From Patescibacteria group bacterium (GTDB taxonomy: Bacteria > Patescibacteriota > Patescibacteriia > SG8-24), in NCBI GenBank assembly GCA_028714475.1, contig JAQTNC010000001.1:22678-86677 (forward strand): a DNA stretch of 64,000 nt, read 5' to 3'. Of this stretch, positions 934 to 60,126 are shown piece by piece (position 1 is the first letter of the stretch; every line of letters starts with the position of its first letter). The notes beneath the pieces were generated by a model. The model was not told the origin of the DNA. It was given only the letters and a program-made list of their open reading frames with translations, and searched no databases. A program made the translations under genes and the position numbers.

Positions 934-2004
934 TCACTTCTTCTTAGCCTGCGTTTTCGTCTTTTCCGGCGTCGGATCAACAGGCGGCGTAGGAGGCACA
1001 AAAACGTACGTCTCCCCGTTCAGCGACCAGCCGGGTCGCGGTCCGCCACCGACTATGAATATGTAACGGTCAGCGGCGGCGGCACCTTCGGCATGAAGCG
1101 GTTGGGGCATTTCCCCGATCATGATCCATGCATGCCGAGCAACATCATAAGCGTCCACTTTGCCGGAGACGCCGGAACCGGTCAAGCCCCCGAAAACGAA
1201 CACCCGGCCGTCAAGATAAGCCATGGCAAAATCGCCTCGGCGCGAAGGCATGGGCATGGCCGCGTCCCAGGACGCTTCCACGTCATTGAACAGCTCGGCC
1301 TTGGATAGGCTTTCGACGGTCGTGCTGGCCAAGCCGCCGAAGACCAGGAAACTGTCGTCAATCGCTGCCGCCCCGCCCCGATCCCGCACGGTCAGCATCT
1401 CTTCGCCGCTCATCCAGTCGCCGCTCCCAGGATCGTAAACCCAGTGCGAGCTCAAGGCACCGGTGACGCCACGGCCGCCGAAAAGATGCATCTTGCCGTC
1501 GTGCACGGCTACGGCCGCGCCACCGATTGATTTCGGGATCGGTTTGCCTTCGGACCAGCGGTCGGTTTGCGGGTCATAGATGTAAAGGGAATCCGTCGGG
1601 CGTGACGCCCAGCCGAACAAACCGCCAGCGGCATAAAGCTTGCCGCCGATTTCGGCCAAGGCGACATGGTTTCGGGGCTGGGGCAGCGGCGCAACGATGG
1701 TCCAACGACCGGTGCGCACGTCCAGACATTCGACCGTGGCGACGGTGCGGTACCAGGCGTCCACGCCGCCGACAACACAAACGCGGCCGGCGACGGTCGC
1801 GGCCGCGACGCCAGTACGCGGAGTCGGCATGGGGTCGGCCTGGAGCCAGTAGCCTTCCGTGCGGGTGGGCGTCGGCGCGCCGAAAACGTACGGCGCTAAA
1901 CCCGGCCGCTCCGGCTCCAAGCCGAGTGGATCAAAACCGCGAACGTACCAGAGGTAGCCGTAGACTGCCGCGGCCAGCAGGAGGATGTATATGACTTTCT
2001 TCAT
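934..2004 (-). CDS. Kelch-repeat beta-propeller protein with N-terminal membrane anchor
   Basis: 356-aa ORF with ATG start. N-terminal hydrophobic helix MKKVIYILLLAAAVYGYLW. Repeated GG..(Y/F)..GG and W..(I/V)..(M/L)P motifs typical of Kelch blades (VVGGVDAWY, LYAAGGLFGW, MHLFGGRG, FLVFGG, VFVFGGL, IFIVGGG). Confidence 0.7.
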   Translation of the reverse strand: MKKVIYILLLAAAVYGYLWYVRGFDPLGLEPERPGLAPYVFGAPTPTRTEGYWLQADPMPTPRTGVAAATVAGRVCVVGGVDAWYRTVATVECLDVRTGRWTIVAPLPQPRNHVALAEIGGKLYAAGGLFGWASRPTDSLYIYDPQTDRWSEGKPIPKSIGGAAVAVHDGKMHLFGGRGVTGALSSHWVYDPGSGDWMSGEEMLTVRDRGGAAAIDDSFLVFGGLASTTVESLSKAELFNDVEASWDAAMPMPSRRGDFAMAYLDGRVFVFGGLTGSGVSGKVDAYDVARHAWIMIGEMPQPLHAEGAAAADRYIFIVGGGPRPGWSLNGETYVFVPPTPPVDPTPEKTKTQAKKK

Positions 2005-3001: not shown

Positions 3002-3119
3002 GGGTTTAACATCAAACTTCCAACGAATGGATGATACCAGATTACGGGGCGTGAGCGAAGTTCGGCCGACGTCCCTTTGACAGCAAAAGGTTATCAAAAT
3101 CCAGGGTAAAAACCCTGGT

Positions 3120-8399: not shown

Positions 8400-8556
8400 G
8401 CCCTTGTCCAGCCTTTTCCGAAGCGCCGATAAACGCCCTCCGGGCCGTGCCAGAAAAAATATCTTTATAGATAAATTATAGCGTTTTTTCGCTCGGCTGA
8501 CAATATATTCCAAAACGACGCCGGATTGGCGTCGCTTCTGTCCTACAAAACCGAAA

Positions 8557-9522
8557 TCACCGCCCCTCGAAGATGTCCTCCACGAAACGGATGTCCAGAC
8601 AGCGGCTGAAATAGGTAAGTAGCTGCGATCGGGCGAAGCCGATGTGCTCCTCCGGCAAATCACGCCACAGCCAGATGCGGTTGGCGCATTTCACGAGCAG
8701 GCCGACCTGCATCTCCTCAACGTCAATCGGAAAATGTTTCGCCAGTTCCTTGACGTAGGCGCGCTGCCAGTCCGGATTGCCCCACATCATGATCCAGCAT
8801 TTCATGGCCACGAACTCCCACGGATCCACGCCACCGACCCAGTCGGCGACCGCGATGCGGCCTTCCGGCAGGAGGATGAAGTTGCGCGGATAAAAATCGC
8901 CGTTCGTGAAGAGGTTGCCCTGGTAGCGTTCCGTGCCCGTGGCGGTGAAAAGCTCGTTGGCCCGCTCCACCGTTTCCGCCATGACGAGGCCTCGCGCCAC
9001 CAGCTCCTGGCTCCGCCGCCGGAATTCCTCGTGCCAGTGGTCGAAATTGAACCGGCGCACGAAAGGCGGCAGGTTTTCCACGTCCACCACGCGCAAATCG
9101 CGCAGGACATCCACGGCGTAACGCGCCACCTGCAGGCCGATGCCGCGGCCGCCGAGGACTTCCGGCTTGGACGACAGCTCCGACCATTCGAAAAGGAGCG
9201 GCATGCCCTTGATGTAGCGCGTGAGCGACCAACGCAAACCCGCGAACGTCCCGTCATTCACGTACTCCGGCAGGACCAGCCGTTCGAAATACTGCTGGTC
9301 GATCTGCGGCAAAACGTCGCGCAGGACGCGCACCTCATACTCCATGCTGGCCGCCTTCCGTTCGTCGCTGCCGTACTTGAGGATGAGGGCGGCCTCACCC
9401 TGGCCCGCCGCGACAGGACGGCAAAGCAGGACGTTCCATTTGACGGCGTCAACAATCTTCAACCCCAAGTGATCGAGGAGTTCAGGCAGGCGCGGATGAA
9501 TCGGCGGCAAGGCGGGATCCAC
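8557..9522 (-). CDS. phosphotransferase-family protein (APH/protein-kinase-like fold)
   Basis: GTG start 11 nt after the ppiase stop. Gly-rich N-lobe ...AAGQGEAALILKYG and catalytic-loop-like TNGDFYPRNFILL...VADWVGG, analogous to the HGD.H.N / D.E motifs of aminoglycoside and choline kinases. The antisense ORF 8644..9633 was rejected. Confidence 0.55.
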   Translation of the reverse strand: MDPALPPIHPRLPELLDHLGLKIVDAVKWNVLLCRPVAAGQGEAALILKYGSDERKAASMEYEVRVLRDVLPQIDQQYFERLVLPEYVNDGTFAGLRWSLTRYIKGMPLLFEWSELSSKPEVLGGRGIGLQVARYAVDVLRDLRVVDVENLPPFVRRFNFDHWHEEFRRRSQELVARGLVMAETVERANELFTATGTERYQGNLFTNGDFYPRNFILLPEGRIAVADWVGGVDPWEFVAMKCWIMMWGNPDWQRAYVKELAKHFPIDVEEMQVGLLVKCANRIWLWRDLPEEHIGFARSQLLTYFSRCLDIRFVEDIFEGR

Positions 9523-10277: not shown

Positions 10278-11555
10278 TTACCGGACTGCTCGCTCTCGCT
10301 CAAGGGCACTTTCGGTATAGACGTTGGCCGCGTTCCAGAGCAGCCAGCCGCTTGCGCCTTGCTCGTCGCTCGCGCGAATCTGCAGCCGCACCTTGTTCGC
10401 GTCATACGTCGCGCCCATGTCGAAATCCTGCAGCCACGGTCGGTAAGTCGCGAGCTTCGCTTCCTCCCCTTTTGCCTCGGCTTCGGCCTTCATCGTCGCA
10501 ATCAGCTTCTGCCCGCGAATCATGTTGTCGCGGACGACCTCGTAGGGATGCTCGGCGGGATTGGCAAAACCTTGGAAACCGTCCGCGTAGTGCGACGGAT
10601 ACACCATCGGCGAGATGAAATCGAAATGCGGCAGGGCGTCGCGCAACATCTGACCAATGTTGAGGTCGTATTCATGCTGCCACATCGTGAGTCCGAAGAG
10701 ATCCACCGAAATCGGAATGCCTTGCTTCTGCCGCAGCTGCAGATCCAGATAGGCGAAGAACTCGCCCAAGACCTCGTGCTTGGGACGCTCACCGTCATAA
10801 AAGGGATACTGCAGGCCTTTCAGGTTGCCGTCGGACGGGAAACGGATGTAATCGAACTGAACCTCGTCGAAGCCGGATTCATAGGCCTCGCGGGCGATGG
10901 CGGCGTTGTATTCCCAGACCTCCTGGCTGGCCGGGTCGAGCCAGCGGATGCCGCGGTTGTCGCGCCAGACGGCGCCGCCCTGGCGGACCGCGAGCTTGGG
11001 CCGCACCGCCACGAGCGCCGAATCCTGGAAGACCGGCACGCGCGCGATGAGGTACAGGCCCTCGGCGTGGAGGCGCTTGGACAATTCGCGCAGGTCGCCA
11101 AGGGACGGCTTTTTGGCGACCGCCACGTTCAGCGCTTCGTCGCGCGGTTTGAAGGCCAACTCATACTTGGAATCCTTGAGGTCAATGACGAGCGCGTTGA
11201 TTTCCGTGCGCTTGGCGATGCCCAGGACCCGTTCAAGCACGATCTTGTTCCCGTACCCGTCGGAGGTCAGGTACAGGCCTTTCACCTTTTCCGGCAACGG
11301 CTGATGTTCGACGCCGGGGATGATGGGCGGCGGCAGACCCGGGCCGTCGTCGGTCCGCACCGCGCCCCAGTCAGGGCGGAACGATTCAAGGGCTATCTGA
11401 CGCTGATAGAACAGGGTCGCGTCAAAATACGCCATGGCCGGCAGGGCGGCCAGAAAAACGATCAGCGCTCCGTGACGCAAAATGAAATCGCGAATTTTGG
11501 CGAGTGCTGCGGCGCGGCGTTCGGCGGGCGTAGGTTCATCGTGGAAGGGCCACAT
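10278..11555 (-). CDS. putative glycoside hydrolase (TIM-barrel, DUF4015-like), N-terminal TM anchor
   Basis: 425 aa. TM helix ALIVFLAALPAMAYF. Core ...GLYLTSDGYGN...INALVIDLKD...EGLYLIARVPVFQD...FDEVQFDYIRFPSDG... resembles the putative glycosyl hydrolase family found next to polysaccharide genes. Confidence 0.55.
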   Translation of the reverse strand: MWPFHDEPTPAERRAAALAKIRDFILRHGALIVFLAALPAMAYFDATLFYQRQIALESFRPDWGAVRTDDGPGLPPPIIPGVEHQPLPEKVKGLYLTSDGYGNKIVLERVLGIAKRTEINALVIDLKDSKYELAFKPRDEALNVAVAKKPSLGDLRELSKRLHAEGLYLIARVPVFQDSALVAVRPKLAVRQGGAVWRDNRGIRWLDPASQEVWEYNAAIAREAYESGFDEVQFDYIRFPSDGNLKGLQYPFYDGERPKHEVLGEFFAYLDLQLRQKQGIPISVDLFGLTMWQHEYDLNIGQMLRDALPHFDFISPMVYPSHYADGFQGFANPAEHPYEVVRDNMIRGQKLIATMKAEAEAKGEEAKLATYRPWLQDFDMGATYDANKVRLQIRASDEQGASGWLLWNAANVYTESALERERAVR

Positions 11556-11621
11556 AGGAGTACTGGAGTACTGAAGTGCTGGAGTGCTGGAGTATCTTCA
11601 GTACTTCAGCACTTCCCAGCT
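11556..11621. repeat. ctgaagtgctggag-family imperfect palindromic intergenic element
   Basis: ggagtactggagtactgaagtgctggagtgctggagtatcttcagtacttcagcacttcccagcttcagaac. Confidence 0.7.
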
Positions 11622-12977
11622 TCAGAACTTCTCAAATCCTTTCCTCCCCAGCAACTTATACATGTGCTTCTTGCCGGCCTCCACGCCGGGTTGGTCATAG
11701 GCATTGACGTCGAGGAGTTCGCCGGCGACGGCCGTGGCGATCTGGAAGAAATTGACGAGCGCGCCGACGGCTTCGGGGCTGACGCGCGGGACGAAGACAG
11801 TGCCGTTCGGCCGGCCATTTTCGGTAAGCGCCAGACTGGTCGCCGCGCGTTCGGCGTGGAGGATTTCCCCGAGCCGATGGCCGGCCATGTAGGCCGTGCC
11901 TTCGATGTCCGGGTAGGGGTTCGGCAGGCGGAAATCCGCGTCCGGACTCTCGACCTCGATGAAGGTCAAGGTCTTGTCGAACGGCCCCTCATTATATAAC
12001 TGAACCTGTGAGTGCTGGTCGGTCGCGCCGAGCGCGGCGACCGGGGTAAAACCGTGGTTAACGACCTTGCCGTGGCGGTCGAGCCTCTTGCCGAGCGACT
12101 CGGCCCAGAGCTGACGGAACCAGGAACCGAACTCGCGGAGGCGTTCGCCGTAAGGCATGAGCACGGTGATGTGCTGACTGCGGCGGACATAGCCGTCGTG
12201 CTGAAGGCCGGCGAACATGAGCGGGCCGTTGTCCATCGTCTTGGCCGCGGCGAACTCGTCGCGCACGGCGCGACAGCCGACGACGAGGCGCCGCACGGGG
12301 ATGCCGGCGCAAGCCGCCGGAAACAGTCCGACCGGCGTGAGCACGGAGAATCGTCCGCCGATGTCAGCGGGCACCGGCAGGGTGCGGTAACCTTCGCGAT
12401 CAGCGATCTTGCGCAGCGTTCCTTTTTCCGTGTCAGTCGTGGCGATGACGTGGCGGGCGTGCCGATTCACGCCCACGGCTTTCACCAAACGGTCGCGAAG
12501 CAGAACGAACGCGCTCATCGGCTCGATGGTGTCGCCGGATTTGGAAATGACATTGATGGCCGTCTTGCGCCAATCAAGGTCGCGAAGCAGCGCGGCCATC
12601 TCGTCCGGATCAGTGTTCGCGCCGATGAAACGGATCTCCATCCCCTTCCCCGCCGGCTTCAGTGCCTTGACGAGCATCCGCGCGCCCAAGTCCGAGCCGC
12701 CGATGCCGATGACGACGAGCGTCTTGAACTCGCGCCCAACGGTCTTGGCCATCGCCTCGACGGCCTTCAAGTCAGCGGTTCGTTCCGGAATCGCCATGAA
12801 CCCGAGCTGGCCGGAGCGCCATTGCTTGATGACCGCCGCCCGGACAGGCTCCAACCGACGGGCCAAATCAATCAAGTCGGCCTTGGGCATCATCATGTTG
12901 CCGCGTTCCGCCGTCATGCGCGAATAGTCGAAGCGAACGAAAGGCTTTACTTCCGCCTTTTTCGTGGTTTTAGGCAT
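11622..12977 (-). CDS. pgi: glucose-6-phosphate isomerase (short ~450-aa type)
   Basis: Motifs VVIGIGGSDLGARM, SKSGDTIEP, GGRFSVL..VGL, and the C-terminus YDQPGVEAGKK. Confidence 0.9.
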   Translation of the reverse strand: MPKTTKKAEVKPFVRFDYSRMTAERGNMMMPKADLIDLARRLEPVRAAVIKQWRSGQLGFMAIPERTADLKAVEAMAKTVGREFKTLVVIGIGGSDLGARMLVKALKPAGKGMEIRFIGANTDPDEMAALLRDLDWRKTAINVISKSGDTIEPMSAFVLLRDRLVKAVGVNRHARHVIATTDTEKGTLRKIADREGYRTLPVPADIGGRFSVLTPVGLFPAACAGIPVRRLVVGCRAVRDEFAAAKTMDNGPLMFAGLQHDGYVRRSQHITVLMPYGERLREFGSWFRQLWAESLGKRLDRHGKVVNHGFTPVAALGATDQHSQVQLYNEGPFDKTLTFIEVESPDADFRLPNPYPDIEGTAYMAGHRLGEILHAERAATSLALTENGRPNGTVFVPRVSPEAVGALVNFFQIATAVAGELLDVNAYDQPGVEAGKKHMYKLLGRKGFEKF

Positions 12978-15723: not shown

Positions 15724-17247
15724 TCACTGTTGACTCCCAACGGACGCTTCCCGCGTGAGCCAATCCTTGAGCGCCGCCGTGGCGCGGACGTCGTCCTCGT
15801 TGTAGCGGATGACGGCGTCGAGCTTTTTCTTGTCGCCTTTCGCGAGCCAGGCCTCGTAGAACTCGACCGACTGGCTGCCGGTCGCGACTTGCTTGCCGCG
15901 CTCGAAGCCGATGTACCCGCCGATGTCCTTGAGGCCGTAGAAGTAAAGCGGAAAGACGACGTCTTCCTTGATAATCTCGTTCAGGTCGATCATCGCCTCC
16001 TGAAAACGCGCGAGCGCCGGCGAGCCGCCGTAACGCGCCTCAAGCGCCGTGAGCCGTGTCATCTCATAATCGCCGTAGTGATAGACGACGTAACGATCCG
16101 GCAGGCCGCCGAGCCAGTGCAGGAAAAGCTGCCACATTTTTCCCTCGTCCTCTGGCTTGGTCGCGACGATGTGCTCGTAACGGTCGCCGTCGGTGTCACG
16201 CAGGAGGAAACCGAACAGGTAATCCGCCTGGCGCGGCGGATCGCTCTCGATGTCGAAATGGATTTCTAATGGCAACCCTTTGACTCGCTTCGCTCGCTCA
16301 GGGAATATTTCTGTTCTGTCCCGAGCTTGCCTGCCCTCCGTAGCTTTTGCGGAGGAGGGTCGAGGGACAGAAACGAGTGATGGCGGCAATTCAGTCGGCC
16401 GGCGAAAAAAATGTCGCCGCTCGATAAGCGCCCGCGCCTGGATTTTCATCCGCTCCAGGGTCTTCCTTTTGAGCTCGCCGCCAGGCTCAACGAGCGACTC
16501 GATGTCCGCCAGCGCGAAATCATGGACGGTCGTGATGCCTCGTTCGCGCAAGGCGGCCGCGGTCTTGTAACGGAGGTTGTAGAGAAGCGCGATGTCGTCC
16601 TTGGTCTCGACGGCGGCCACGCATTCATGCAGCCACGGCGAGACGCGGCAGCCGGAATTGAGGTGCGGACCGGGTCTCTCTCCGGCAAGAATGGCCCGCA
16701 GCCGCGCCAATGCGTCCTCAAACTGCGGTGCGAACTCATCGAGATCCGTGCCGAGGCGCACGCCTTGGCCATTAACGGCGAAACCGTGACGCGGCCGCCG
16801 GCCTTGGATGTGCGAAAGCAATTCGCCGTGAAGAGCGGCCTGCAAACGATGCCCATCATTCAGCCGGTCAACGAAATTCTTGACGTCTACGGCCACGTAG
16901 TGCCAGCCGCCGAACTCCGACGGCATGCCGTCGGTGCGCTCAAGCAAATCCGGTTCAGAAATCAGGTCGCCGTACTTCAGCATACCGCCGCGAATCCGCG
17001 CCTCGCCTTTCTTCATGAGCGCGAGCGTTCTTTTTGCGCGTTCGGCGACGGTCTTGCCCTTCGGCTTCGCCCACATGCCGCCGCCGAGTGCCTCATCCTC
17101 GGCGAAGATGTCGCCGCACAAAAGCATGTCCGCGAGCTTGGTGCGCCGCTTGGCCTGGCCGCCGAACCGCTCGAAATACGGCCAGTTGGGACAGGCGTGA
17201 AATTTGTACAGGAGGGTGGGAGTGATGATGACGGAAGATTTTGTCAT
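15724..17247 (-). CDS. TM0106-family RecB-like putative nuclease (PD-(D/E)xK Cas4-like N-domain plus RNase-H-like 3'-5' exonuclease C-domain)
   Basis: ATG at 17247 begins MTKSSVIITPTLLYKFHACPNWPYFERFG. The C-terminal part IHFDIESDP...YLFGFLLRD...VVYHYGDYEMTRL is DnaQ/RNaseH-like. The 39 extra N-terminal codons of the track ORF are the translation of repeat element A and are not expected to be coding. Confidence 0.7.
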   Translation of the reverse strand: MTKSSVIITPTLLYKFHACPNWPYFERFGGQAKRRTKLADMLLCGDIFAEDEALGGGMWAKPKGKTVAERAKRTLALMKKGEARIRGGMLKYGDLISEPDLLERTDGMPSEFGGWHYVAVDVKNFVDRLNDGHRLQAALHGELLSHIQGRRPRHGFAVNGQGVRLGTDLDEFAPQFEDALARLRAILAGERPGPHLNSGCRVSPWLHECVAAVETKDDIALLYNLRYKTAAALRERGITTVHDFALADIESLVEPGGELKRKTLERMKIQARALIERRHFFRRPTELPPSLVSVPRPSSAKATEGRQARDRTEIFPERAKRVKGLPLEIHFDIESDPPRQADYLFGFLLRDTDGDRYEHIVATKPEDEGKMWQLFLHWLGGLPDRYVVYHYGDYEMTRLTALEARYGGSPALARFQEAMIDLNEIIKEDVVFPLYFYGLKDIGGYIGFERGKQVATGSQSVEFYEAWLAKGDKKKLDAVIRYNEDDVRATAALKDWLTREASVGSQQ

Positions 17248-17365
17248 AAATTGTAGCGGCGCGGTGCGGCGCGAAGACTTGGAGCGCCGCACGGGCGGTA
17301 TGGGCCGCCCGGTGTTTGCCGAGCGATTTCCTATTCTACGCGAGGCAAACCTGTCGCGCACCACC
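17248..17365. repeat. three-hairpin structured repeat element, copy A (abuts the start codon of the RecB-like nuclease)
   Basis: Sequence gtagcggcgcg GTGCGGCGC gaagacttgga GCGCCGCAC GGGCGG tatg GGCCGCCC ggt GTTTGCC gagcgatttcctattctacgcgag GGCAAAC ctgtcgcgcaccacc. About 85% identical to copy B. Stems that differ between copies carry compensatory changes. Confidence 0.7.
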
Positions 17366-17380
17366 TTGAACGAACCCTGA

Positions 17381-17412
17381 AGAAATAGGTGGGGCGAGAC
17401 AGGGTCTCGCCG
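17381..17412 (-). terminator. rho-independent terminator of the ABC permease gene
   Basis: Minus-strand GGCGAGACcctgTCTCGCC followed by CACCTATTTCTTC. Confidence 0.7.
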
Positions 17413-18669
17413 CTACTCATACCTCAAAGACGTAATCGGATCCAATGCGGCGGCTTTGCGAGCAGGTTGTAACCCGAAGACAATGCCGGTCACGGCCGCG
17501 ACGATGGCCGCACCCACGAAAGCTTCCACAGAAACTAGATACGGGACATTAAGCCCATTCAAATTCATGATGAGCACAACCACAAGCGTGAGCAGGAAGC
17601 CGATGCCGCCGCCGATGATGCCGCCAGCCGTGGTGAGCGCCACGGATTCGGCCAGGAACTGCAAGAGGATGTCGTGGTTCTTGGCGCCGAGCGCCTTGCG
17701 CAAGCCGACCTCGCGGATGCGTTCGGTGACGGAAACAAGCATGATGTTCATGATGCCGATGCCGCCGACGACGAGCGAGATGGCGGCCAGGAACGCCAGG
17801 AACCAAGTGATGACGTCGGTGATCGTGTTAAGACGGTCGGTTATGTCCTTGGCCGACATGATCAGGAAATCATCCTTGGTCGGGTCAGTTATGCGGTGCC
17901 GCTTGCGCAGAAGCCGCGTGAGCTCGTCCATCATTGGTGCCACGCTCGCCTCGTCATTGGCGCGCAAGTCTATCTCGACGAGCTTGTCATTGCCGATCAG
18001 CCGTTTCTGCATAAACCGTAGCGGCATGACGGCCATGGAATCAACATCGATGCCCATCATGCCGCCCATTGGTTTCAAGGTGCCGATGACCTCCATCGGG
18101 ACGCCCTTGACCTTGACTTTTTGGCCGATTGCTTCCGCGCCACCGAACAGCTTGTCCTTGGCCTTGCTGCCAAGCAGGATGTATGAGGACATGGACCGCT
18201 CCTCGTCATCGGTGAAATACCGGCCAGTTCCAACCGTAATCATCGGGACAATGGTGGGGTAGTCAGCCGACGTTCCGATCAACATGGTTCGGTACTCCTC
18301 GTTGCCGTAACGCACGAACTCCTGGCCGCTGACGATGCCAGCCACGGCCATGGCATGCGGCACGTTCTTCCTGTCCTTCATCGCATTCAAGTCGTCATAA
18401 GTGAGCGACATCGGCGCGGCGCCCAGCATGAGCGCATGCATCGAATTCTCCTGCGACGCTCCCGGCACGGCTGGGTTGATGGAAACGAAATCGCGGCTGG
18501 CGAAACTTTCCACGTAACCGATGATGGCCGCTTTCACGGCCACGCCGAGCGAGATGATGATGGTCACGGAAAAGACGCCGATGACGATACCAAGGAGCGA
18601 CAAGGCCGTCCGCACCTTGTTGCGGCTCAAATTCTTGAAAGCGTTCTTAGTGGCGGGGATGAGGCTCAT
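17413..18669 (-). CDS. ABC transporter permease, MacB/FtsX type
   Basis: ATG at 18669 begins MSLIPATKNAFKNLSRNKVRTALSLLGIVIGV. Four TMs and a periplasmic domain. A terminator hairpin GGCGAGACCCTGTCTCGCC plus T-run sits directly 3' of the gene. Confidence 0.85.
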   Translation of the reverse strand: MSLIPATKNAFKNLSRNKVRTALSLLGIVIGVFSVTIIISLGVAVKAAIIGYVESFASRDFVSINPAVPGASQENSMHALMLGAAPMSLTYDDLNAMKDRKNVPHAMAVAGIVSGQEFVRYGNEEYRTMLIGTSADYPTIVPMITVGTGRYFTDDEERSMSSYILLGSKAKDKLFGGAEAIGQKVKVKGVPMEVIGTLKPMGGMMGIDVDSMAVMPLRFMQKRLIGNDKLVEIDLRANDEASVAPMMDELTRLLRKRHRITDPTKDDFLIMSAKDITDRLNTITDVITWFLAFLAAISLVVGGIGIMNIMLVSVTERIREVGLRKALGAKNHDILLQFLAESVALTTAGGIIGGGIGFLLTLVVVLIMNLNGLNVPYLVSVEAFVGAAIVAAVTGIVFGLQPARKAAALDPITSLRYE

Positions 18670-23061: not shown

Positions 23062-23145
23062 CAGAATGCCGGAGTTCTGGAGTGCTGAAGTGCTGGAGTC
23101 TTCAGCACTCCAGCACTTCCCCGCCCCAGCACTATTACATTAGGT
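23062..23145. repeat. ctgaagtgctggag-family imperfect palindromic intergenic element
   Basis: ggagttctggagtgctgaagtgctggagtcttcagcactccagcacttcc. Confidence 0.7.
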
Positions 23146-27830: not shown

Positions 27831-28949
27831 ATGAATATGGCGGACGTGACTGACACCCAACAAAAAACAGGCTGGTTCCGGCGGGTTTGGCATCGCCACC
27901 GCGCCGCTGTTTGGTCCATCTTGGGCTCGCTCGTCATCCTCGCGGTGGCCGGGGCGGCCGTGTTCATCGGACTCGGCGACGGCAACGGCAATATTCACCT
28001 GCCGGCGATGCTGACCGGGAAAAAGGCCGAGGCGCCGCCGGTCACGTCGCCCACCACGCCCACGGCTAATGATCGCGACTGGCAACGCTACGGGCACCTC
28101 GACCTCCTGCGCAAGATGTTGGCCAGCTATGAGCACGATCGGCGCGATTACCCCCAGAGCCTCGCCGACCTCGTGCCGCGTTACCTGAAACAGTTGCCCA
28201 CCGACCCGACCACCGGCCAACCCTACGCCTACGAACGCACCGCGACCGGCTACCGGCTCACGGCCGATTTCGAAGCCGGCGTCATGGCGCTCGCCGCCGG
28301 TCGGCACCATCTCTCGCCGAATGGCTTTGACCTGCCGACCGAAACCGGAGGATCCGGCGCGCCTCCTCCGGCCCCGAACGTCACGCAACCCGCCGCCCAA
28401 CCCACGAACCCCCTGCCACCGCTCCCCACCAACCTGCCCGGCGACACGGACGGCGATGGGCTCACTGACGACGTCGAAAAAATCCTTGGCACTGACCCGA
28501 ACAACCGGGACACGGACGGCGACGGATTAACGGACGGCGAGGAAAGCGTCATCACCAAGACCGACCCGCTCAACCCGGACACGGACGGCGACGGCTTTTC
28601 CGACGGTGCGGAAGTCGCTGGCGGATTCGACCCGAAAGTCAAAGGCGGACGGCTGCCGGATTCCGACAATGACGGCGTCACGGACCTGGCCGAGGAAATC
28701 AAGGGGCTGAACCCGTTCGACCCGGACACGGATCTCGACGGTTTGGCGGACGGCGACGAACTGGCCGTGTTCGGCACCGACCCGCTCAAGGCCGACACGG
28801 ATGGCGACGGCGTTTCCGACGCCACGGAAATCAGCAACGGCGACAACCCGCTCGGCACCGGCCGGCTGACGTCCGAACAGCAGGCGGACATCCAGGCCAA
28901 GTCCGCCGCCGGCCTTCACCAGCCGACCCTGAAAACGCTGGGCCGGTGA
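27831..28949 (+). CDS. membrane-anchored protein with thrombospondin type-3 (Ca-binding) repeats
   Basis: TM helix ILGSLVILAVAGAAVFIGL. About 8 D.DGDG(L/F)(T/S)D repeats. Confidence 0.7.
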   Translation: MNMADVTDTQQKTGWFRRVWHRHRAAVWSILGSLVILAVAGAAVFIGLGDGNGNIHLPAMLTGKKAEAPPVTSPTTPTANDRDWQRYGHLDLLRKMLASYEHDRRDYPQSLADLVPRYLKQLPTDPTTGQPYAYERTATGYRLTADFEAGVMALAAGRHHLSPNGFDLPTETGGSGAPPPAPNVTQPAAQPTNPLPPLPTNLPGDTDGDGLTDDVEKILGTDPNNRDTDGDGLTDGEESVITKTDPLNPDTDGDGFSDGAEVAGGFDPKVKGGRLPDSDNDGVTDLAEEIKGLNPFDPDTDLDGLADGDELAVFGTDPLKADTDGDGVSDATEISNGDNPLGTGRLTSEQQADIQAKSAAGLHQPTLKTLGR

Positions 28950-29030
28950 AGAAGTCAGTGCGGGAGCGCAGAAGTACTGAAGTGCTGAAGAGGGAAAAGC
29001 TTGACAACTGTTGAACGGCCCAACAACTTC

Positions 29031-29094
29031 TCCAGCACTCCAGCACTCCAGCACTCCAGCACTCCAGCACTCCAGCACTCCAGCACTCCAGCAC
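29031..29094. repeat. (CCAGCACT)8 perfect 8-bp tandem repeat inside a ctgaagtgctggag-family palindromic element
   Basis: Eight uninterrupted CCAGCACT units. The upstream partner agtactgaagtgctgaag lies at 28972-28991. The track ORFs 28527..29078 and 28831..29094 (VLECWSAG repeats) are translations of this repeat. Confidence 0.9.
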
Positions 29095-29174
29095 TTCCTA
29101 CTGGTTCGCCGTCGTTAGCCATGATAATCTTAGGTTAGCGGACGGTTCACGCCTTTAGAGCCGCCCCCATCCGC

Positions 29175-30094: not shown

Positions 30095-30185
30095 TGCCAA
30101 GTTGTGGAGTAATGGAGTCGTGGAGTAGTGAAGCGACTATGAAAAACAAAATCGACTTTTCTACTTCACGACTTTACAACTTAAC
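30095..30185. repeat. gtggagtagtgaag-word palindromic element
   Basis: gttgtggagtaatggagtcgtggagtagtgaagcgact...agtcgacttttctacttcacgactttacaac. Confidence 0.6.
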
Positions 30186-32264: not shown

Positions 32265-32370
32265 CAATATGCCCGGCTGGGTGAATCGCGAGCTGGCGAG
32301 CGATTCACGGGCAGCACGGGCTGCCCGGGGTTTGGCGAGCAATCACCGATTCTTTGCGAGCCAAACGAGC
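32265..32370. repeat. three-hairpin structured repeat element, divergent copy C
   Basis: Sequence GTGAATCGC gagctggcgag GCGATTCAC GGGCAGC acg GCTGCCC gggGTTTGGCgagcaatcaccgattctttgcgagGCCAAAC. The architecture matches A/B, with different stem-1 and stem-2 sequences that still pair. Hairpin 3 is nearly identical to copy B. Confidence 0.6.
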
Positions 32371-32501
32371 GGAGCCGTGAGGCGCACTTAATGTTGCGCC
32401 GGAACGGTCCGCGAGCGAAGCCGAGTGCAGTGCGCCCGGACCAGCGGCTGCCTGAAAAAGAAGGGCCGGTGACACCGGCCGTTGATAATCAAGTTGCCGT
32501 T

Positions 32502-39738: not shown

Positions 39739-39921
39739 CACTGACCCTTTCCGGCTTTCGCCAATTCTAAACGCCAATGAACAAGAGAATTGAAATTAGC
39801 ACAGGCGCGGCCAAACGTCAATCTCCGCCGCCGCACCCCAAGCAACTTGACGGGGGACGAAAATTTTGCTAAGGTCGGGTCAACCCTTGCTATCCTAGCC
39901 AGGCCGAAAGCGAGAAACAAG

Positions 39922-40299
39922 ATGTCGCAAGCGACTTTCCAGAAACTGCTCTTTGCCTGCCTGACCGCCGGCGCCCTCGATGTCGCCATCATGTTCCAGT
40001 GGTTTGCCCCACACCAAGAGGCGCTGACAGCGGTCTTCATGCTCTTCGTTGGCGGGATAATCACGCTCGGCGGCTTCAGCGCCTTCGCGAACGCCTGCGC
40101 CATCGTATTAACCACCACTGTCGTGGCCGGCATCGTCGGCTGGCAATACACCTACCCATCCGTGATGGCGTCTGACTGGCCCGCCCTGTCACCCAACATG
40201 GCATTTCTGGCCTTTCTGGGTGCGGAACTGCTGGGGCTGGTCCTGGTGGTCAAGGCCTTGCGGCCGGCTCTCGAACGACTCGGCAAATGGCCGTGGTGA
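39922..40299 (+). CDS. small membrane protein (4 TM)
   Basis: Begins MSQATFQKLLFACLTAGALDVAIMF. A terminator hairpin GGCGGCC...GGCCGCC plus T-run directly follows. Confidence 0.5.
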   Translation: MSQATFQKLLFACLTAGALDVAIMFQWFAPHQEALTAVFMLFVGGIITLGGFSAFANACAIVLTTTVVAGIVGWQYTYPSVMASDWPALSPNMAFLAFLGAELLGLVLVVKALRPALERLGKWPW

Positions 40300-40317: not shown

Positions 40318-40374
40318 CGTCTACCCGTGCCGCTGGCGGCCCCTCACCCTTGAGGCGGCCGCCACTGTTTTTAC
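40318..40374 (+). terminator. terminator of the small membrane-protein gene, immediately preceding repeat D1
   Basis: GGCGGCCcctcacccttgaGGCGGCCGCC + ACTGTTTTTA. Confidence 0.6.
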
Positions 40375-40745
40375 GGAATATATTGTGCGAAGCACACTTT
40401 GCGGACAAGATGACTTCATCTCGCGAGGCCACCCTGTACCGTAATGGTACAGGGTTCCGCAGGCCGAGCGCATACTATATATAGGTTGGTGGGACGAAGC
40501 CGCGGGTGACGCGGAGCGGGGCGACCGACGGGCGGACCCGGTTCCGGAGACAATCGCTCGCGCAATTACGCATCCAGCGCGAGCGCTGTCGACGGAAGCG
40601 GGCCCGACCGGCGGGAGCACGGGTTGGTGACTTGCATGTGGAATCGCGGCAGGACCCGCGGCCGGTTGTTTCTGAGCCTCTGCCTTCACGAGAACGACAT
40701 AATCAATAAACCCAGGCACAAAGCCCGGGCTTGTTGTTTATATAT
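40375..40745. repeat. ~370-bp structured repeat D1 (between a plus-gene terminator and the metK stop)
   Basis: Blocks shared with D2: attgtgcgaagcacactttgcgga; gcaggccgagcgcatac; gccgcgggtgacgcggagcgggg ... gcggcaggacccgcggc (a long-range pair GCCGCGGG/CCCGCGGC). The variable inserts are perfect hairpins (CCCTGTACCgtaatGGTACAGGG). Confidence 0.6.
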
Positions 40746-40757
40746 GGAATGTCGCCG

Positions 40758-41795
40758 TCAGTTCAGCACGATATGCTCCCACGGGAAACCGTCGCGGCCG
40801 AAATGCCCGTAGGCGGCCGTCTGGCGGTAAATGGGTCGGCGCAGGCCGAGTCGCTCGATGATGGCGCGCGGCCGGAAATCAAATTGATCCTTCAAATATC
40901 CAGTCAGGTCGCGCCCGTCGCCGCCGACCGCGCGGAGCATTACCGGCTCTTCCTTGCCGATGACGTAAGCGACGGAAACGAGACAGTTCTTGGCGTGGCC
41001 GTTTGCGACGATGTTCTTCGCGGCGAAGCGCGCCATATATGCGCCCGAGCGATCCACCTTGGTCGGATCCTTGCCGGAGAACGCGCCGCCGCCGTGCGGG
41101 ATGAGTCCGCCGTAGGTATCCACCATCAGCTTGCGGCCGGTGAGCCCGGTGTCCGCGCGGAATCCGCCGTCCACGAACGAGCCGGTCGGGTTCACGTAGA
41201 TGCGCGTCGCGCCCGGGTCGCCGAGGAGCGGATCAACGAGATGCTTGAGCAGGAGCTTCTTGATTTCCGCGACGCCGATGTCATCACTGTGTTGGGCCGA
41301 GACGACGATCGCGTCAACGCGACCGTGGTCAACGGTCACCTGCGACTTGCCGTCCGGCTTGAGCCAGGTGAACTCCGGATGATTGCGGCGCAGGTCCGCG
41401 AGGCCCCAAGTCAAACGGTTCGCGAGCACGACCGGTTCCGGCAGGAATTCCGACGTCTCGCACGTGGCGTAGCCGTACATGATGCCCTGGTCGCCGGCGC
41501 CGCCCACGTCCACGCCGCGCGCGATGTCACGCGACTGTTCCTCCACGTTGGTGAAGACCTCGAGTTCGTCGTCGTAGCCTATGTCGCGATAGACGCGCTC
41601 TGCCACCTGGGCCAAATCAATTTCCGCCTGCGAAGTGACTTCGCCGCCGATCATGAGCGCGCCGTGAGAGCCGAAAACCTCCACCGCCACGCGGCTCGCT
41701 GGGTCACGGCTCAAGTAGGCGTCCAGAATGGCGTCAGCGATTTGGTCGCAGACCTTGTCCGGGTGGCCTTCGGTGACGGATTCGACGGTTTTCAT
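40758..41795 (-). CDS. metK: S-adenosylmethionine synthetase (short 345-aa form)
   Basis: ESVTEGHPDKVCDQIAD, GGGAFSGKDPTKVDRSGAYMAR, FVDGGFRADTGLTGRKLMVDTYGG. Confidence 0.9.
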   Translation of the reverse strand: MKTVESVTEGHPDKVCDQIADAILDAYLSRDPASRVAVEVFGSHGALMIGGEVTSQAEIDLAQVAERVYRDIGYDDELEVFTNVEEQSRDIARGVDVGGAGDQGIMYGYATCETSEFLPEPVVLANRLTWGLADLRRNHPEFTWLKPDGKSQVTVDHGRVDAIVVSAQHSDDIGVAEIKKLLLKHLVDPLLGDPGATRIYVNPTGSFVDGGFRADTGLTGRKLMVDTYGGLIPHGGGAFSGKDPTKVDRSGAYMARFAAKNIVANGHAKNCLVSVAYVIGKEEPVMLRAVGGDGRDLTGYLKDQFDFRPRAIIERLGLRRPIYRQTAAYGHFGRDGFPWEHIVLN

Positions 41796-44697: not shown

Positions 44698-44829
44698 CCC
44701 CATGCCAAGCGTGGGGTCATTATATTATCGAAAATTTGCCGGACGCGACCCTTGACAGAATCTGCCGTCCCCGCTAATTTATCGTCAGCCGTAGCTCCTT
44801 TCAGGCTAACGGAGATTGGAGAGGAATCC

Positions 44830-45630
44830 GTGACGAACAAACCTTCCGACCCCATTGGGCTGTTCATCTTAAGTGCGCTCGCCTACCCGATTGTGTGCCT
44901 GCTGACCAAGGCCCTGCCGTTCCTGCCAGCCGAGTCGCCGGTCTACGCCGTCGCCGCCATCGCCTTCATCACGACCATGGTGAACAACGACCGGTCGGAA
45001 GGCATGGCGAAGAGGCTCTGGCGCGGCCGCACCATACCGCTCTGGCTCGGCGCGCTCCTCGGCCTTGCTCTCGTGCTCACGCCCCTCTGGGCCAAGATGT
45101 GGCACGAGGGCGGCGAGAACAAGGACTTGTTGTTCGTCATCCTGTCGGCCTTCAAGGTGACCGGCTGGGTCATGGGCACGTCCGTCGCGGCCATCGTCCT
45201 TTCGGCCGTCATGTCCATGGACGTCAAGGGTGCCTTCAAGCTGGGCTGGGTATTTTCCCTAGTCTCTTCCCTGGTCATGGGCTTGTCATGCATGGCGGTT
45301 TCAAATTGCATGCTATGCCTGAACTGGACGGACAGTGACTCCGGCTTAACCTTGGCCTTGGTCGCCTTGCTCCTCACCGCCACCATAGGCGGCGACGCTT
45401 CCGACAGCGACATTCAAGCCAAGCCGTGGCGGTTCATCGGGAGTCAATTGTCCGGCTTGACCGTTTGGCTGTTGCTGTCGGCTGTGGTCGCGACCGTTTT
45501 CTTCAACAGCGTGGCCCTTTTCGCCAATCTGCCCAGTCCGCTGGCTTTTGGCCTCTGGGTTGCCCTCGGCTCGGCCGCCGCCATCGCCATGCGCGTAAAA
45601 TCCGCTCTCGAAGAAGAGCCGGCCGACTGA
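44830..45630 (+). CDS. polytopic membrane protein
   Basis: GTG at 44830 after GGAGAGG. About 8 TMs. A terminator hairpin CGCCCATCGTC...GACGATGGGCG plus T-run follows. Confidence 0.5.
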   Translation: MTNKPSDPIGLFILSALAYPIVCLLTKALPFLPAESPVYAVAAIAFITTMVNNDRSEGMAKRLWRGRTIPLWLGALLGLALVLTPLWAKMWHEGGENKDLLFVILSAFKVTGWVMGTSVAAIVLSAVMSMDVKGAFKLGWVFSLVSSLVMGLSCMAVSNCMLCLNWTDSDSGLTLALVALLLTATIGGDASDSDIQAKPWRFIGSQLSGLTVWLLLSAVVATVFFNSVALFANLPSPLAFGLWVALGSAAAIAMRVKSALEEEPAD

Positions 45631-45631
45631 C

Positions 45632-45682
45632 GCCGCCCGCTTCGAACCCGCCCATCGTCTCCGCGACGATGGGCGTTGTGTA
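45632..45682 (+). terminator. terminator of the membrane-protein gene, immediately preceding repeat D2
   Basis: CGCCCATCGTCtccgcGACGATGGGCG + TTGTGTAATAAATT. Confidence 0.7.
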
Positions 45683-46025
45683 ATAAATTGTGCGAAGCAC
45701 ACTTTGCGGAATAGACGACTTCCTTTCGCTCGGCCAGGCGACGCTTTGCGTCGCCCCGCAGGCCGAGCGCATACACATATTTGTTGGTAGAACGAGGCCG
45801 CGGGTGACGCGGAGCGGGGACCCCGATGGCGCGCATCCCTCACCATTTCCGCTCCGTTTTTTCACCGACGGAAATGGTGAGGGAGAGCACCAGCGGGGTG
45901 CGGAGCGGCAGGACCCGCGGCACGTCAGGCCTGGTTTGTCGCTTTCGTGGGAATGACAACAAAGGAATGCCCTTCGACAAGCCGTGCACCATGACGGTGC
46001 GCGGCAAGCTCAGGGCATATTTATT
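45683..46025. repeat. ~340-bp structured repeat D2 (between a plus-gene terminator and the helicase stop)
   Basis: Same conserved blocks as D1. The inserts at equivalent positions are different perfect hairpins (GGCGACGCtttgCGTCGCC; CCCTCACCATTTCCG...CGGAAATGGTGAGGG). Confidence 0.6.
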
Positions 46026-46039
46026 TATTGTTGCTCAAA

Positions 46040-48130
46040 CTAATAATCCCCCAAAAAGCTTTTCTTCTTCCAATCCTTCTTGACCTGCTGCATGCGGTTC
46101 TTCACGCCCTGCATGGCGCTCGTTGGCTCGCCGTCCGCGCCAATCTCCACCGCCTCGTCATCATAATCATCGTCGCCAGAAAACTCACTGAACCCGCACT
46201 TTCGTCCGGTCGGGTCGCTCACGCAGTTCGGCGAAATTTCGTCGAGGAACATCGAGCGCTCCTCAAACTCGATGGAACCGCGCCCGACCGAGGCCGGATG
46301 CGACAGGTAAAGTCGATCCTTGGCGCGAGTGACGGCGACGTAGAAAAGCCGCCGCTCCTCTTCCACGCCGCCCTGTTCCTCAAGCGCGCGACGGTTCGGG
46401 AAACTCGACGCCGTAAGATGAATGACAAAAACAATCGGCCACTCCAACCCTTTGGCTTGATGAACGGTCGAAAGCACGACCTGGTTCGCGCCCTTGACGT
46501 GTCCGCCAGTCGCCCGCGCCTCGTCAAGCGTCACCTCCGCGAGGAAATCGTCGAGCTTGACGTAGGGCTCGGCAAAACGCGCCATCTGCTCAAGATCCTC
46601 CAGCCGCTCGCGGAAATTCGGAAATTCAGCTTCGAGAAAATCCGCGTACGGCGACTTGATGACGCTACGAATGAGCGCGGCGGGCACATCGCCAGCCGCC
46701 ACGACCTCCTCAAGCGTCGCGTGCAAATCGCGCCAACCGACCGCGCCGCGATTACCGACGATGCTTTCGCCATCGAGCAGCGGTATCCGTTCCAGCGAAC
46801 CGCCCTGCCGAAAGGTCATGAGCAGACGCCCCGCGGCCACCTCGCCGATGCCGGTCCAATGGTTTTCGAGAACGCGTCGCCACGCCGCCTCGTCGGCGAA
46901 ATTCTGGCGCACGCGCAGGAAGGCCAACGTGTCCTTGACGTGGGCGCGGTCGAAGAAGCGCAAGCCGCCGCGATAGTCGTAAGGAATGCCGCGCCGCGTC
47001 AACTCGAACTCCAACGCCTGCGAATGGCTGGCGGCCCGAAACAGCACGGCGATATCTACCGGTCGCGTGCCGGTTCGCAAAAGCTTCTCAATGGAGTTGG
47101 CGACAAACTCCGCCTCGCGCGAGGCCGACGGCGAGGGCACAATGGCCGGTTTCTCCTGCCCGCCGCGTACGGCCGCGAGCTCCTTAGGGAACTGCTCGAC
47201 ATTCTTGGCGATGATGTCGTTGGCCAAGCCGAGGATTTCCGGCGTCGAGCGGTAATTCGTCTCCAGCTTGAAGACGCGCGCCTCCGGATAATGCTTAGGG
47301 AAATCCAGGATGTTGCGCACGTCCGCGGCGCGAAAGGAGTAGATGCTCTGGGCGTCGTCGCCGACCACGAGCAGGTTGTGTTTCGGCCCGGCGAGCCGAC
47401 GGATAAGGGCGTTCTGCAAGGCGTTCGTGTCCTGATACTCGTCAACCAAAATGTACTTGAACTGGCTCGACAGCCGCTCGCGCACGAGCGGGTCATCCTC
47501 CAAGAGCCGCGCTAGGCGCACCAACAGGTCGTCGAAATCCATGGCATTGGCCGCGAGCTTCTTTTTTTCATAAAGGTCCGCCACGGCCTGTAATTCCGCC
47601 ATGATGCCGAGGAAATGCGGGTGCAACTTCATGAGTGCCGCCTCAAAAGACATCTGCGCGTTGCGCCGATAAGAGACGACATCCTGAACGACGGCCGGCG
47701 AGGGAAAACGCCGCCCGGCCTTGTCGTGTCCGAGCTCCTTGATGCTCGCCTTATAGAGAGAGCGCGAGTCGTCCTGATCCAGAATGGTGAACGACGGCGT
47801 ACAGCCTACGCGGTCGGCATAGACGCGCAAAAGCCGGTTGGCAACCGAATGGAACGTCCCGCCCCAGAGTCCGAGCGGCCGCCGCGAACCAGCCGCACCC
47901 AGCAGCTCGCCAATGCGCGTCATCATCTCGTTGGCAGCCTTGTTGGTGAAAGTGAGCAGGAGGATGTTCTCCGGCGCGATGCCGTGCTCGATGAGCCAGG
48001 CGACGCGATAGACGATGGTGCGCGTCTTGCCCGAACCGGCGCCGGCCAAAACCAAACACGGCCCGTCACCCTCACGGACGACGGCCAGCTGTTCGGCATT
48101 CAGTTCGTTTTCGTAATCAAGACGAGACAT
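46040..48130 (-). CDS. ATP-dependent DNA helicase, UvrD/PcrA/Rep family
   Basis: LNAEQLAVV, AGAGSGKTRT (Walker A), LLTFTNKAANEM, ILVDEYQDTN, VVGDDAQSIYSFRAA, QNYRS, TVHQAKGLEW. The C-terminal ~60-aa acidic tail is extra. Confidence 0.9.
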   Translation of the reverse strand: MSRLDYENELNAEQLAVVREGDGPCLVLAGAGSGKTRTIVYRVAWLIEHGIAPENILLLTFTNKAANEMMTRIGELLGAAGSRRPLGLWGGTFHSVANRLLRVYADRVGCTPSFTILDQDDSRSLYKASIKELGHDKAGRRFPSPAVVQDVVSYRRNAQMSFEAALMKLHPHFLGIMAELQAVADLYEKKKLAANAMDFDDLLVRLARLLEDDPLVRERLSSQFKYILVDEYQDTNALQNALIRRLAGPKHNLLVVGDDAQSIYSFRAADVRNILDFPKHYPEARVFKLETNYRSTPEILGLANDIIAKNVEQFPKELAAVRGGQEKPAIVPSPSASREAEFVANSIEKLLRTGTRPVDIAVLFRAASHSQALEFELTRRGIPYDYRGGLRFFDRAHVKDTLAFLRVRQNFADEAAWRRVLENHWTGIGEVAAGRLLMTFRQGGSLERIPLLDGESIVGNRGAVGWRDLHATLEEVVAAGDVPAALIRSVIKSPYADFLEAEFPNFRERLEDLEQMARFAEPYVKLDDFLAEVTLDEARATGGHVKGANQVVLSTVHQAKGLEWPIVFVIHLTASSFPNRRALEEQGGVEEERRLFYVAVTRAKDRLYLSHPASVGRGSIEFEERSMFLDEISPNCVSDPTGRKCGFSEFSGDDDYDDEAVEIGADGEPTSAMQGVKNRMQQVKKDWKKKSFLGDY

Positions 48131-59958: not shown

Positions 59959-60079
59959 AAAAAATCGTAGCGGCGGGGTGTGGCGCGAAGACTTGGAGCG
60001 CCACACGGGCGGCATGGGCCGCCCCGGGTTTGGCGAGCAATTTCCGATTATATGCGAGCCAAACTGTCCCCGCACCACC
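59959..60079. repeat. three-hairpin structured repeat element, copy B (abuts the fpg start codon)
   Basis: Sequence gtagcggcggg GTGTGGCGC gaagacttgga GCGCCACAC GGGCGG catg GGCCGCCC cgg GTTTGGC gagcaatttccgattatatgcgag GCCAAAC tgtccccgcaccacc. Relative to copy A, the C>T in stem 1 is matched by G>A on the other arm, and CC>GC in stem 3 is matched by GG>GC. Confidence 0.7.
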
Positions 60080-60126
60080 ATAATACATTTCGGTGGTGGA
60101 GGGGTAAACCCTCCCGCTACAATCTG

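Follow-up and report, generated by a model that had tools for sequence, protein, structure and literature searches.

The window analysed here is a stretch of 64,000 nucleotides (nt) from a Patescibacteria contig (JAQTNC010000001.1, assembly GCA_028714475.1), numbered from its first letter. Two of its intergenic gaps hold copies of a repeated element, which we call D1 and D2. D1 lies between a plus-strand open reading frame (ORF) for a hydrophobic protein (39790–40299) and the convergent metK gene (40758–41795, minus strand); D2 lies between a second plus-strand hydrophobic ORF (44752–45630) and the convergent gene for a UvrD-type helicase (46040–48130, minus strand). An original prediction, made from the letters alone, had placed the copies at 40375–40745 and 45683–46025 and proposed that they represent a large structured non-coding RNA (ncRNA). 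Together with a third homolog, M1, from a metagenome, they form what we term the D family: structured elements of ~240–290 nt, so far from two GC-rich, Uhrbacteria-like Patescibacteria only. The family is a real, unclassified structured non-coding element and, with three sequences, a candidate rather than a discovery. Judged by the sequence of MetK, whose best named relatives are from Uhrbacteria or Parcubacteria, the host of D1 and D2 is one such Patescibacterium; the closest other MetK is 82% identical.

That D1 and D2 are homologous, as first claimed, was borne out by blastn, by a covariance model and by four blocks of identical sequence. D2 is the blastn match of D1 within the window (77% identity over 145 nt, E 3e-25; block 4 matches separately as an identical 17-mer), and beyond it D1 had no match in the whole window with E < 0.006. 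A covariance model of the 5' domain (R1) scored D1 at 99 bits and D2 at 103 bits, the next match in the window reaching 11 bits. D1 and D2 are the only copies in the window. On the plus strand the core of D1, defined by its homology to D2 and M1, runs from 40383 to 40665 (5' domain 40383–40478, 3' domain 40479–40665) and that of D2 from 45688 to 45921 (5' domain 45688–45777, followed by the 3' domain). The blocks, all on the plus strand and identical in D1 and D2, are block 1 (TTGTGCGAAGCACACTTTGCGGA, 23 nt, 40383–40405 and 45688–45710), block 2 (CCGCAGGCCGAGCGCATAC, 19 nt, 40457–40475 and 45756–45774), block 3 (GCCGCGGGTGACGCGGAGCGGGG, 23 nt, 40499–40521 and 45797–45819) and block 4 (GCGGCAGGACCCGCGGC, 17 nt, 40646–40662 and 45905–45921). 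Between them lie segments of unequal length which cannot be aligned. Pairwise alignment and an inverted-repeat scan upheld the description of conserved blocks alternating with unrelated perfect hairpins in the same slots, and every hairpin that had been quoted is present with a perfect stem: ACCCTGTACC/GGTACAGGGT (10/10 pairs), GGCGACGC/GCGTCGCC (as quoted), TCCCTCACCATTTCCG/CGGAAATGGTGAGGGA (16/16 pairs) and GCCGCGGGT/ACCCGCGGC (9/9 pairs, in D1 and D2 alike). Stretches of 23, 19, 23 and 17 identical nt beside sequence that cannot be aligned suggest purifying selection on the blocks and turnover between them.

The predicted flanks were correct, namely terminators of upstream plus-strand membrane-protein ORFs on one side and convergent metK and helicase genes on the other; the predicted right ends were not. 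Strong homology ends at 40662 and 45921 and weak homology at ~40700 and ~45958, so that the last 40–65 nt of the original intervals (40708–40745 and 45960–46025) are non-homologous and consist of the terminator hairpins of metK and the helicase gene; the two genes themselves end 13–15 nt past those right ends. Four terminator-like hairpins lie outside the repeat. Two are on the plus strand, closing the hydrophobic ORFs with a hairpin and T-run right before D1 (40334–40372) and D2 (45649–45682, 11/11 pairs); two are on the minus strand, behind metK (40708–40732) and behind the helicase gene (45960–46018). All four fit an intrinsic terminator, a GC-rich hairpin followed directly by a U-run, whereas the conserved core does not. 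The metK hairpin is U-rich on both strands and could also end a plus-strand transcript; hairpins with U-rich tails on the plus strand lie downstream of both D1 and D2. The two hydrophobic ORFs are not paralogs of each other and neither has a Pfam match; since they are not paralogous, D1 and D2 are not a segmental duplication. Neither ORF has a counterpart in the syntenic loci of relatives (tblastn), and thus each copy follows a lineage-specific membrane-protein gene.

Could the repeats simply be coding? Long ORFs do cross both copies (40321–40719, 45346–45846, 45444–45836 and 45503–45865, all on the minus strand), and D1 and M1 have in common an AUG followed by (T/S)SSREA, from which a short plus-strand peptide might be read. 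The ORFs crossing the element, however, have no Pfam match, stop codons are present, frames are broken by D1/D2 indels that are not multiples of three, and the frame in which a conserved block falls changes from copy to copy. Where D1 and M1 have the AUG, D2 reads ACG, with a stop codon ahead of it, and a six-frame pseudo-protein query against 5.8 billion protein sequences returned no match at E <= 10. A coding reading is effectively refuted, and the earlier view that conservation here is at the level of nucleotides and not of protein stands.

Nor do the repeats belong to a known RNA family. The Rfam 15 scan that had been proposed as a check matched none: there was no gathering-level match in the whole window, and at E <= 10 D1, D2 and M1 gave only hairpin-type noise (miRNA precursors and similar). 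ARAGORN found no tRNA and no tmRNA. The original failure to match RNase P RNA, tmRNA or signal recognition particle (SRP) RNA is therefore confirmed.

On both strands D1 and D2 form much more stable folds than their dinucleotide shuffles do (z −5.6 to −10.5; D1 −5.6, D2 about −8 to −10). At the 5' end, the core of block 1 (GTGCGAAGCACACTTTGCGGA, 21 nt) is invariant in D1, D2 and M1. It holds the 5-3-5 palindrome TGTGC-GAA-GCACA, which occurs in the window only at D1 and D2 (0.05 expected), and it can fold in two ways, either as UGUGC-GAA-GCACA or as the alternative hairpin GCGAAG-CACA-CUUUGC. On the minus strand it offers just a weak 5-bp hairpin and AUAUAUU. A variable spacer of 16 nt leads from block 1 to helix P3, which in D1 (40422–40470, plus strand) is CGC-GA-GGCC / GGCC-GA-GCG, with seven invariant pairs around a tandem G·A internal loop and a variable cap at 40431–40455. 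In D2 the helix (CGCUCGGCC / GGCCGAGCG, 45727–45769, plus strand) has nine pairs, all Watson-Crick, with UC in place of the 5' GA, and its cap is the variable hairpin GGCGACGC-UUU-GCGUCGCC. The three caps are unrelated in sequence and have 10 pairs in D1, 8 in D2 and 5 in M1 (z −6.9, −4.8 and −2.0, respectively).

An A/U-rich linker separates P3 from block 3, which in D1 forms either the 5' strand of a long-range helix or a local CCGCG-GGUGA-CGCGG hairpin. In the long-range alternative GCCGCGGGU of block 3 pairs with the distal ACCCGCGGC, with a predicted probability of ~1.0 in D1 and 0.53 in D2, and block 4 supplies the 3' strand. The region between is occupied in D1 by a long irregular hairpin (40522–40620, plus strand) with an apical 9-bp stem (40555–40563 / 40577–40585) and in D2 by a hairpin (45820–45900, plus strand) with a perfect 16-bp stem (45836–45851 / 45869–45884). 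The long hairpins of D1, D2 and M1 (z −5.1, −7.7 and −4.0) are unrelated in sequence; those of D1 and M1 nevertheless share a second symmetric tandem G·A loop, CCG-GA-GAC / GUC-GA-CGG, which in D1 reads UUCCG-GA-GAC (40542–40551) / GUC-GA-CGGAA (40588–40597) and in M1 stands at the same offset. In D2 both tandem G·A loops have turned Watson-Crick: the 5' GA has become UC and now pairs with the 3' GA, which is unchanged. A kink-turn was dropped, each of the tandem G·A sites being a symmetric 2x2 loop that lacks a bulge. As a separate observation, D2 contains the octamer CGGAGCGG twice, each being the complement of CCGCTCCG, which lies close to the tip of its 16-bp hairpin (45810–45817, 45849–45856 and 45901–45908); this complementarity, which D1 lacks, permits alternative or pseudoknot pairings.

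The third member was found by scanning JGI metagenomes with the 20-mer GTGCGAAGCACACTTTGCGG of block 1. The scan gave a single true homolog, M1 (L102:2802–3062); its second match (L101) lies inside a 612-amino acid (aa) ORF and is due to chance. M1 retains 21/21 nt of the block 1 core as well as TCTCGCGAGGCCA, AGGCCGAGCGCA, ACGCGG, TTCCGGAGAC...GTCGACG and GGACCC, all at matching offsets. Its host, judged by a neighbouring ABC-F gene, is another Uhrbacteria-like Patescibacterium. On one side of M1 is the terminator of a 168-aa ORF, on the other the ABC-F promoter (TTGCCA-17-TATTAT), and both genes are on the strand opposite to the element; M1 follows a strong canonical terminator (8-pair stem, seven U), precedes a promoter, and is surrounded by genes unrelated to those at D1 and D2. 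It also has two further hairpins capped by C-GAA-G. The ABC-F promoter (L102 2750–2803) ends ~8 nt before the ATG of its gene, so that the mRNA may have no leader or almost none.

Since M1 comes from a second organism, D1 and D2 cannot be a local duplication and nothing more, and the homolog also bears on whether the element does anything at all. If D1 and D2 were a duplication in decay, or GC-rich spacer that is neutral and forms hairpins by chance, one would expect few members, no covariation and relatives without the element; all three are seen, with only three members found. Yet the blocks are perfectly conserved beside sequence that cannot be aligned, the same slots have been refilled with new hairpins, the genes upstream of D1 and D2 are not paralogous, and the identical 21-mer and shorter blocks recur at matching offsets in another organism and another context. 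Genomes of the candidate phyla radiation (CPR) are, moreover, generally compact, and two neutral spacers of ~300 nt are unlikely to persist in them. We regard an absence of function as highly improbable.

Among relatives the element is patchy. We examined six loci with MetK homologs (L001–L003, L124–L126) and seven loci with ABC-F homologs from three relatives (L103–L109). The gene order helicase / 700-aa protein / metK is retained in L002 and L003 (MetK 79–81% identical), but the element is absent from L001–L003 (MetK 79–82% identical), relatives bridging the same gene junctions with 115–220 nt. In ~230 kb of syntenic and nearby DNA from nine relatives no element was found with blastn, nhmmer or the covariance model with its filters off. 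A covariance-model search had also been suggested at the outset; over the window and this related DNA the 5' domain model, filters off, found D1, D2 and M1 only. Since relatives lack it, the element is not a housekeeping RNA. In 185,579 species genomes the 19-mer CGCGGGTGACGCGGAGCGG of block 3 had 97 matches, all by chance (GC-rich Actinomycetes and similar), and three scans of viral contigs gave chance matches in coding DNA only; such exact-word scans of large collections would miss homologs that differ in the seed, and CGCGGGTGACGCGGAGCGG is a GC-rich one.

Several observations tell the two strands apart. The minimum free energy of D1 is −144.0 kcal/mol on the plus strand versus −128.0 on the minus strand; the plus strand thus folds better by 16 kcal/mol in D1, and by 14 kcal/mol in M1, while D2 folds equally on both. 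The plus strands of D1, D2 and M1 have more G than C and more A than T (GA:TC 69:32, GGA:TCC 26:12), the surplus purines being located in loops and in G·A mismatches. In M1 a C-to-U change in block 3 and a U·G in the cap hairpin allow pairing on the plus strand only. Composition, folding and these U·G pairs together indicate that one strand matters, and that this strand is not the one encoding metK and the helicase. The proposal that the element is a minus-strand 3' extension of those two genes is accordingly disfavoured, the more so as the gene context of M1 is unrelated. Strand asymmetry leaves RNA and single-stranded DNA (ssDNA) undistinguished.

It is at this point that a cis-acting role has to be weighed. 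The element might be a stack of stable hairpins, transcribed by read-through alone, which insulates convergent or tandem transcription units or shields mRNA 3' ends from exonucleases, as has been proposed for REP, BOX and ERIC sequences. The right side of every copy abuts the terminator hairpin of a minus-strand gene (metK, the helicase, the 168-aa ORF of M1), D1 and D2 occupy convergent 3'-3' gaps, and their Watson-Crick-only stems fold on both strands, in D2 equally well. Insulation or a 3' end block, on the other hand, needs neither invariant blocks of 17–23 nt nor tandem G·A loops; the difference between strands in D1 and M1 points to a single functional strand; little read-through is expected where M1 lies, after a strong terminator and before a promoter; and relatives manage the same junctions in 115–220 nt with no element. 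We consider this role very unlikely.

The reading that we favour, tentatively and with a confidence somewhat short of even, is that the D family is a lineage-restricted, plus-strand structured ncRNA whose tandem G·A loops may bind protein. The elements would act as single-stranded molecules read from the plus strand of the window. The RNA would be ~300–360 nt long, presumably beginning just before block 1 and ending at the hairpin shared with the convergent gene. It would consist of a well-conserved 5' domain of ~95 nt (the invariant 21-nt block and P3), the A/U-rich linker, and a fast-evolving 3' domain in which a GC-rich junction bears the long irregular hairpin with the second tandem G·A loop. 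A protein or another nucleic acid could recognise the invariant block and the tandem G·A loops, with the replaceable hairpins giving only scaffold and stability. Presumably such an RNA would work in trans or autonomously and not by regulating its neighbours. What speaks for RNA are old, diverged copies with selected blocks, the lack of transposon hallmarks, the lack of mobile-element genes in the window (no transposase, integrase or reverse transcriptase among its genes) and a helix held in common with a likely RNA, described below.

A good deal weighs against this ncRNA reading, besides the empty loci of the nine relatives. No convincing sigma-70-type promoter was found on either strand beside any copy, by scan or by eye, although neighbouring genes do carry canonical promoters (metK, TGGACA-17-TATTTT; the neighbour of M1, TTGCCA-17-TATTAT). 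The terminators of flanking genes bracket each copy, and read-through into it would therefore be limited. Covariation is nil: none of the 13 pairs in the two conserved helices differs among D1, D2 and M1, so these helices carry no covariation information, and three sequences cannot give statistics. Structural support comes only from unrelated hairpins re-created at equivalent positions. The variable stems of D1 and D2 comprise 41+ Watson-Crick pairs with zero G·U, a composition that suits DNA palindromes or young hairpins better than old RNA stems. The hairpin of block 1, furthermore, is the GCGAAGC mini-hairpin, a 5-bp stem with a GAA triloop, whose stability is exceptional in DNA and far lower in RNA, and which is found in ssDNA priming sites and in the hairpin promoters of phage N4 (PMC13037366).

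M1 adds to these difficulties. The long-range GCCGCGGG/CCCGCGGC helix of the original prediction can pair in D1 and D2 but is not kept as such in M1, where it shrinks to <= 6 pairs. For M1, thermodynamic prediction recovers neither that helix nor P3 (probability 0 for each), and the predicted global fold of D1 and D2 is, by this modelling, not conserved in M1. The block 3 substitutions of M1 fall in the loop of the local CCGCG-N5-CGCGG hairpin or change one of its C-G pairs to U·G, a pattern under which the support for the local CCGCG/CGCGG hairpin is no weaker than that for the long-range helix. The 5' strand of P3 in M1, CGCGAGG (L102 2841–2847), is itself complementary to CCTCGCG near the 3' end (3035–3041), and an alternative long-range pairing specific to M1 is possible.

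The same facts could be explained if the D family were a non-autonomous repeat, either selfish or structured at the DNA level and akin to REP/BIME, MITE or PATE sequences, or else a single-strand site of initiation or recombination; its hairpins would form in ssDNA. Block 1 might then be bound by a recombinase, transposase or primase whose gene lies in another part of the genome. Such a repeat would be patchy, as this one is (two copies 5.3 kb apart in one genome, one in another, 0/9 relatives), and it would sit, as these copies do, in intergenic gaps beside terminators, unrelated to the neighbouring genes. The lack of a visible promoter, the perfect Watson-Crick stems of D1 and D2, the mini-hairpin of block 1 with its counterparts in ssDNA priming sites and N4 promoters (PMC13037366), and the presence of other intergenic palindromic repeat families in the genome would all follow readily. 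D1 and D2 are, however, old and diverged with blocks under selection, and not near-identical recent insertions. They have neither terminal inverted repeats nor a target-site duplication, and their ends lack the similar hairpins that an IS200/IS605-type element requires. Transposase and integrase are absent from the window, where GCGAAGC is not enriched either (21 observed versus 23 expected), and the purine and GA asymmetry means that one strand matters, an argument which does not separate ssDNA from RNA. On balance we think a selfish or ssDNA element unlikely.

Returning to the ncRNA reading, its link to a likely RNA comes from a second intergenic repeat family, E, with three copies in the window (E1 17221–17415, E2 ~32271–32440, E3 ~59962–60122) and an E-like element in another Patescibacterium (L103 ~1000–1340, minus strand). 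E1 (17221–17406) matches the Rfam model of the sbcD RNA (RF01757) over its full length with 32 bits (E 9e-5), below the gathering score of 40, and the E family may be a CPR branch of this motif. The third hairpin of E1, GUUUGCC-GA-GCG...CGC-GA-GGCAAAC, contains the exact strands GCCGAGCG/CGCGAGGC of P3 in D1 and M1, with the loop at the other end. The pairs flanking this motif covary in E2, E3 and the E-like element of L103 (GGCGAGCA/UGCGAGCC; GGCCGAGGC/GCCGAGGCC), while the CGAG/CGAG core is constant. A G·A helix common to two otherwise unrelated elements suggests a common recognition motif. An extended form of the ncRNA reading, possible but doubtful in our view, would make the D family an undescribed RNA class of ~300 nt in a CPR subgroup. 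Its 21-nt block and G·A loops would offer a CPR protein a binding platform, one also present in the sbcD-like E RNAs, and its junction, where CCGCG can pair locally or with the distal CGCGG, would act as a conformational switch.

Patescibacteria have small genomes. In the literature on non-coding function in Patescibacteria and the wider CPR, only rRNA and tRNA introns and guide-RNA arrays turned up. A structured element of ~300 nt kept twice within 5 kb would point the way to RNA biology particular to this lineage of episymbionts, and so would the tandem G·A helix common to the D family and the more widespread sbcD-like repeat. If the selfish, ssDNA-level explanation were true, the D family would document a mobile class of structured DNA in genomes commonly regarded as having few such elements.

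The window contains further repeats. Intergenic arrays of an 8-nt unit (CTCCAGCA / CTTCAGCA, complement TGCTGGAG) lie at 2040–2117, 11549–11627, 23063–23139, 28955–29101 and 30098–30134; opposite orientations make long palindromes at some of these sites, nine perfect CTCCAGCA units stand at 29030–29101, and the arrays at 2040–2117 and 23063–23139 adjoin gene starts. A surface-type protein of 1835 aa with Big_7, Big_13 and bacterial TSP3 repeats is encoded at 3156–8663 (minus strand) and a second TSP3-rich protein at 27831–28949 (plus strand); TSP3-repeat proteins account for the direct repeats in coding DNA at 28239–28832.

Many known systems were set aside. RNase P, SRP, 6S and tmRNA, group I and II introns, HEARO and riboswitches were dropped for want of a gathering-level Rfam 15 match. 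The element is too long for an integron attC site and is not arrayed, and island att sites were dropped because the repeats flank core syntenic genes. A template and variable repeat pair of a diversity-generating retroelement does not fit, in that D1 and D2 differ by indels and by whole hairpins among other changes, neither copy lies in a gene, and the window holds no reverse transcriptase. A MITE would have terminal inverted repeats, but the left end (TTGTGCGAAGCAC...) is uncomplemented at the right end of D1, D2 and M1; the flanks have no direct repeat in common, and there are two copies per 64 kb, just 77% identical over 145 alignable nt. The IS200/IS605-derived PATEs are a less clear-cut case; the hairpin of block 1 has no right-end counterpart, and no transposase lies within the window. 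REP/BIME was rejected, the unit being ~280 nt with several unrelated hairpins and two copies, and no RAYT-like gene being among the window ORFs scanned.

Some likenesses to known systems are nonetheless instructive. Like REP/BIME, BOX and ERIC sequences, the D family is intergenic, often at the 3' ends of genes, built of modular hairpins, without a link to the function of its neighbours and patchy in its phylogeny. Those repeats, by contrast, number tens to hundreds of similar copies per genome with units of 20–150 nt, as against two diverged copies of ~280 nt in 64 kb; the D family, unlike them, has invariant blocks split by unrelated hairpins, no GTAG head and no RAYT gene seen. With the ssDNA hairpin signals of the phage G4 origin, ssiA and the promoters of the N4 virion RNA polymerase (PMC13037366) block 1 shares the GCGAAGC hairpin of 5 bp and a GAA triloop. 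These signals are 20–100 nt long and occur in phage or plasmid replicons beside their cognate enzymes, whereas the D family has neither such an enzyme nor a replicon in the window, nor a viral homolog.

Closer in general character are the orphan RNAs raiA, ROOL, GOLLD, HEARO and OLE, which are alike in size (a few hundred nt), in their conserved junctions and variable peripheral stems, in lineage restriction and in having no known function. Those classes comprise many sequences with strong covariation, compared with three sequences and none in the D family, which matches none of them in Rfam 15. The sbcD motif, reported from Burkholderiales (Weinberg et al. 2010, PMC2864571), differs from the D family in length, in its other blocks and in host phylum; its model (gathering score 40 bits) leaves D1, D2 and M1 unmatched even at E <= 10, and the G·A helix of the D family faces the opposite way relative to the hairpin loop. 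Both, however, are multi-hairpin, GC-rich, intergenic candidate RNAs of unknown function, and in both a helix is broken by a symmetric GA/GA 2x2 loop.

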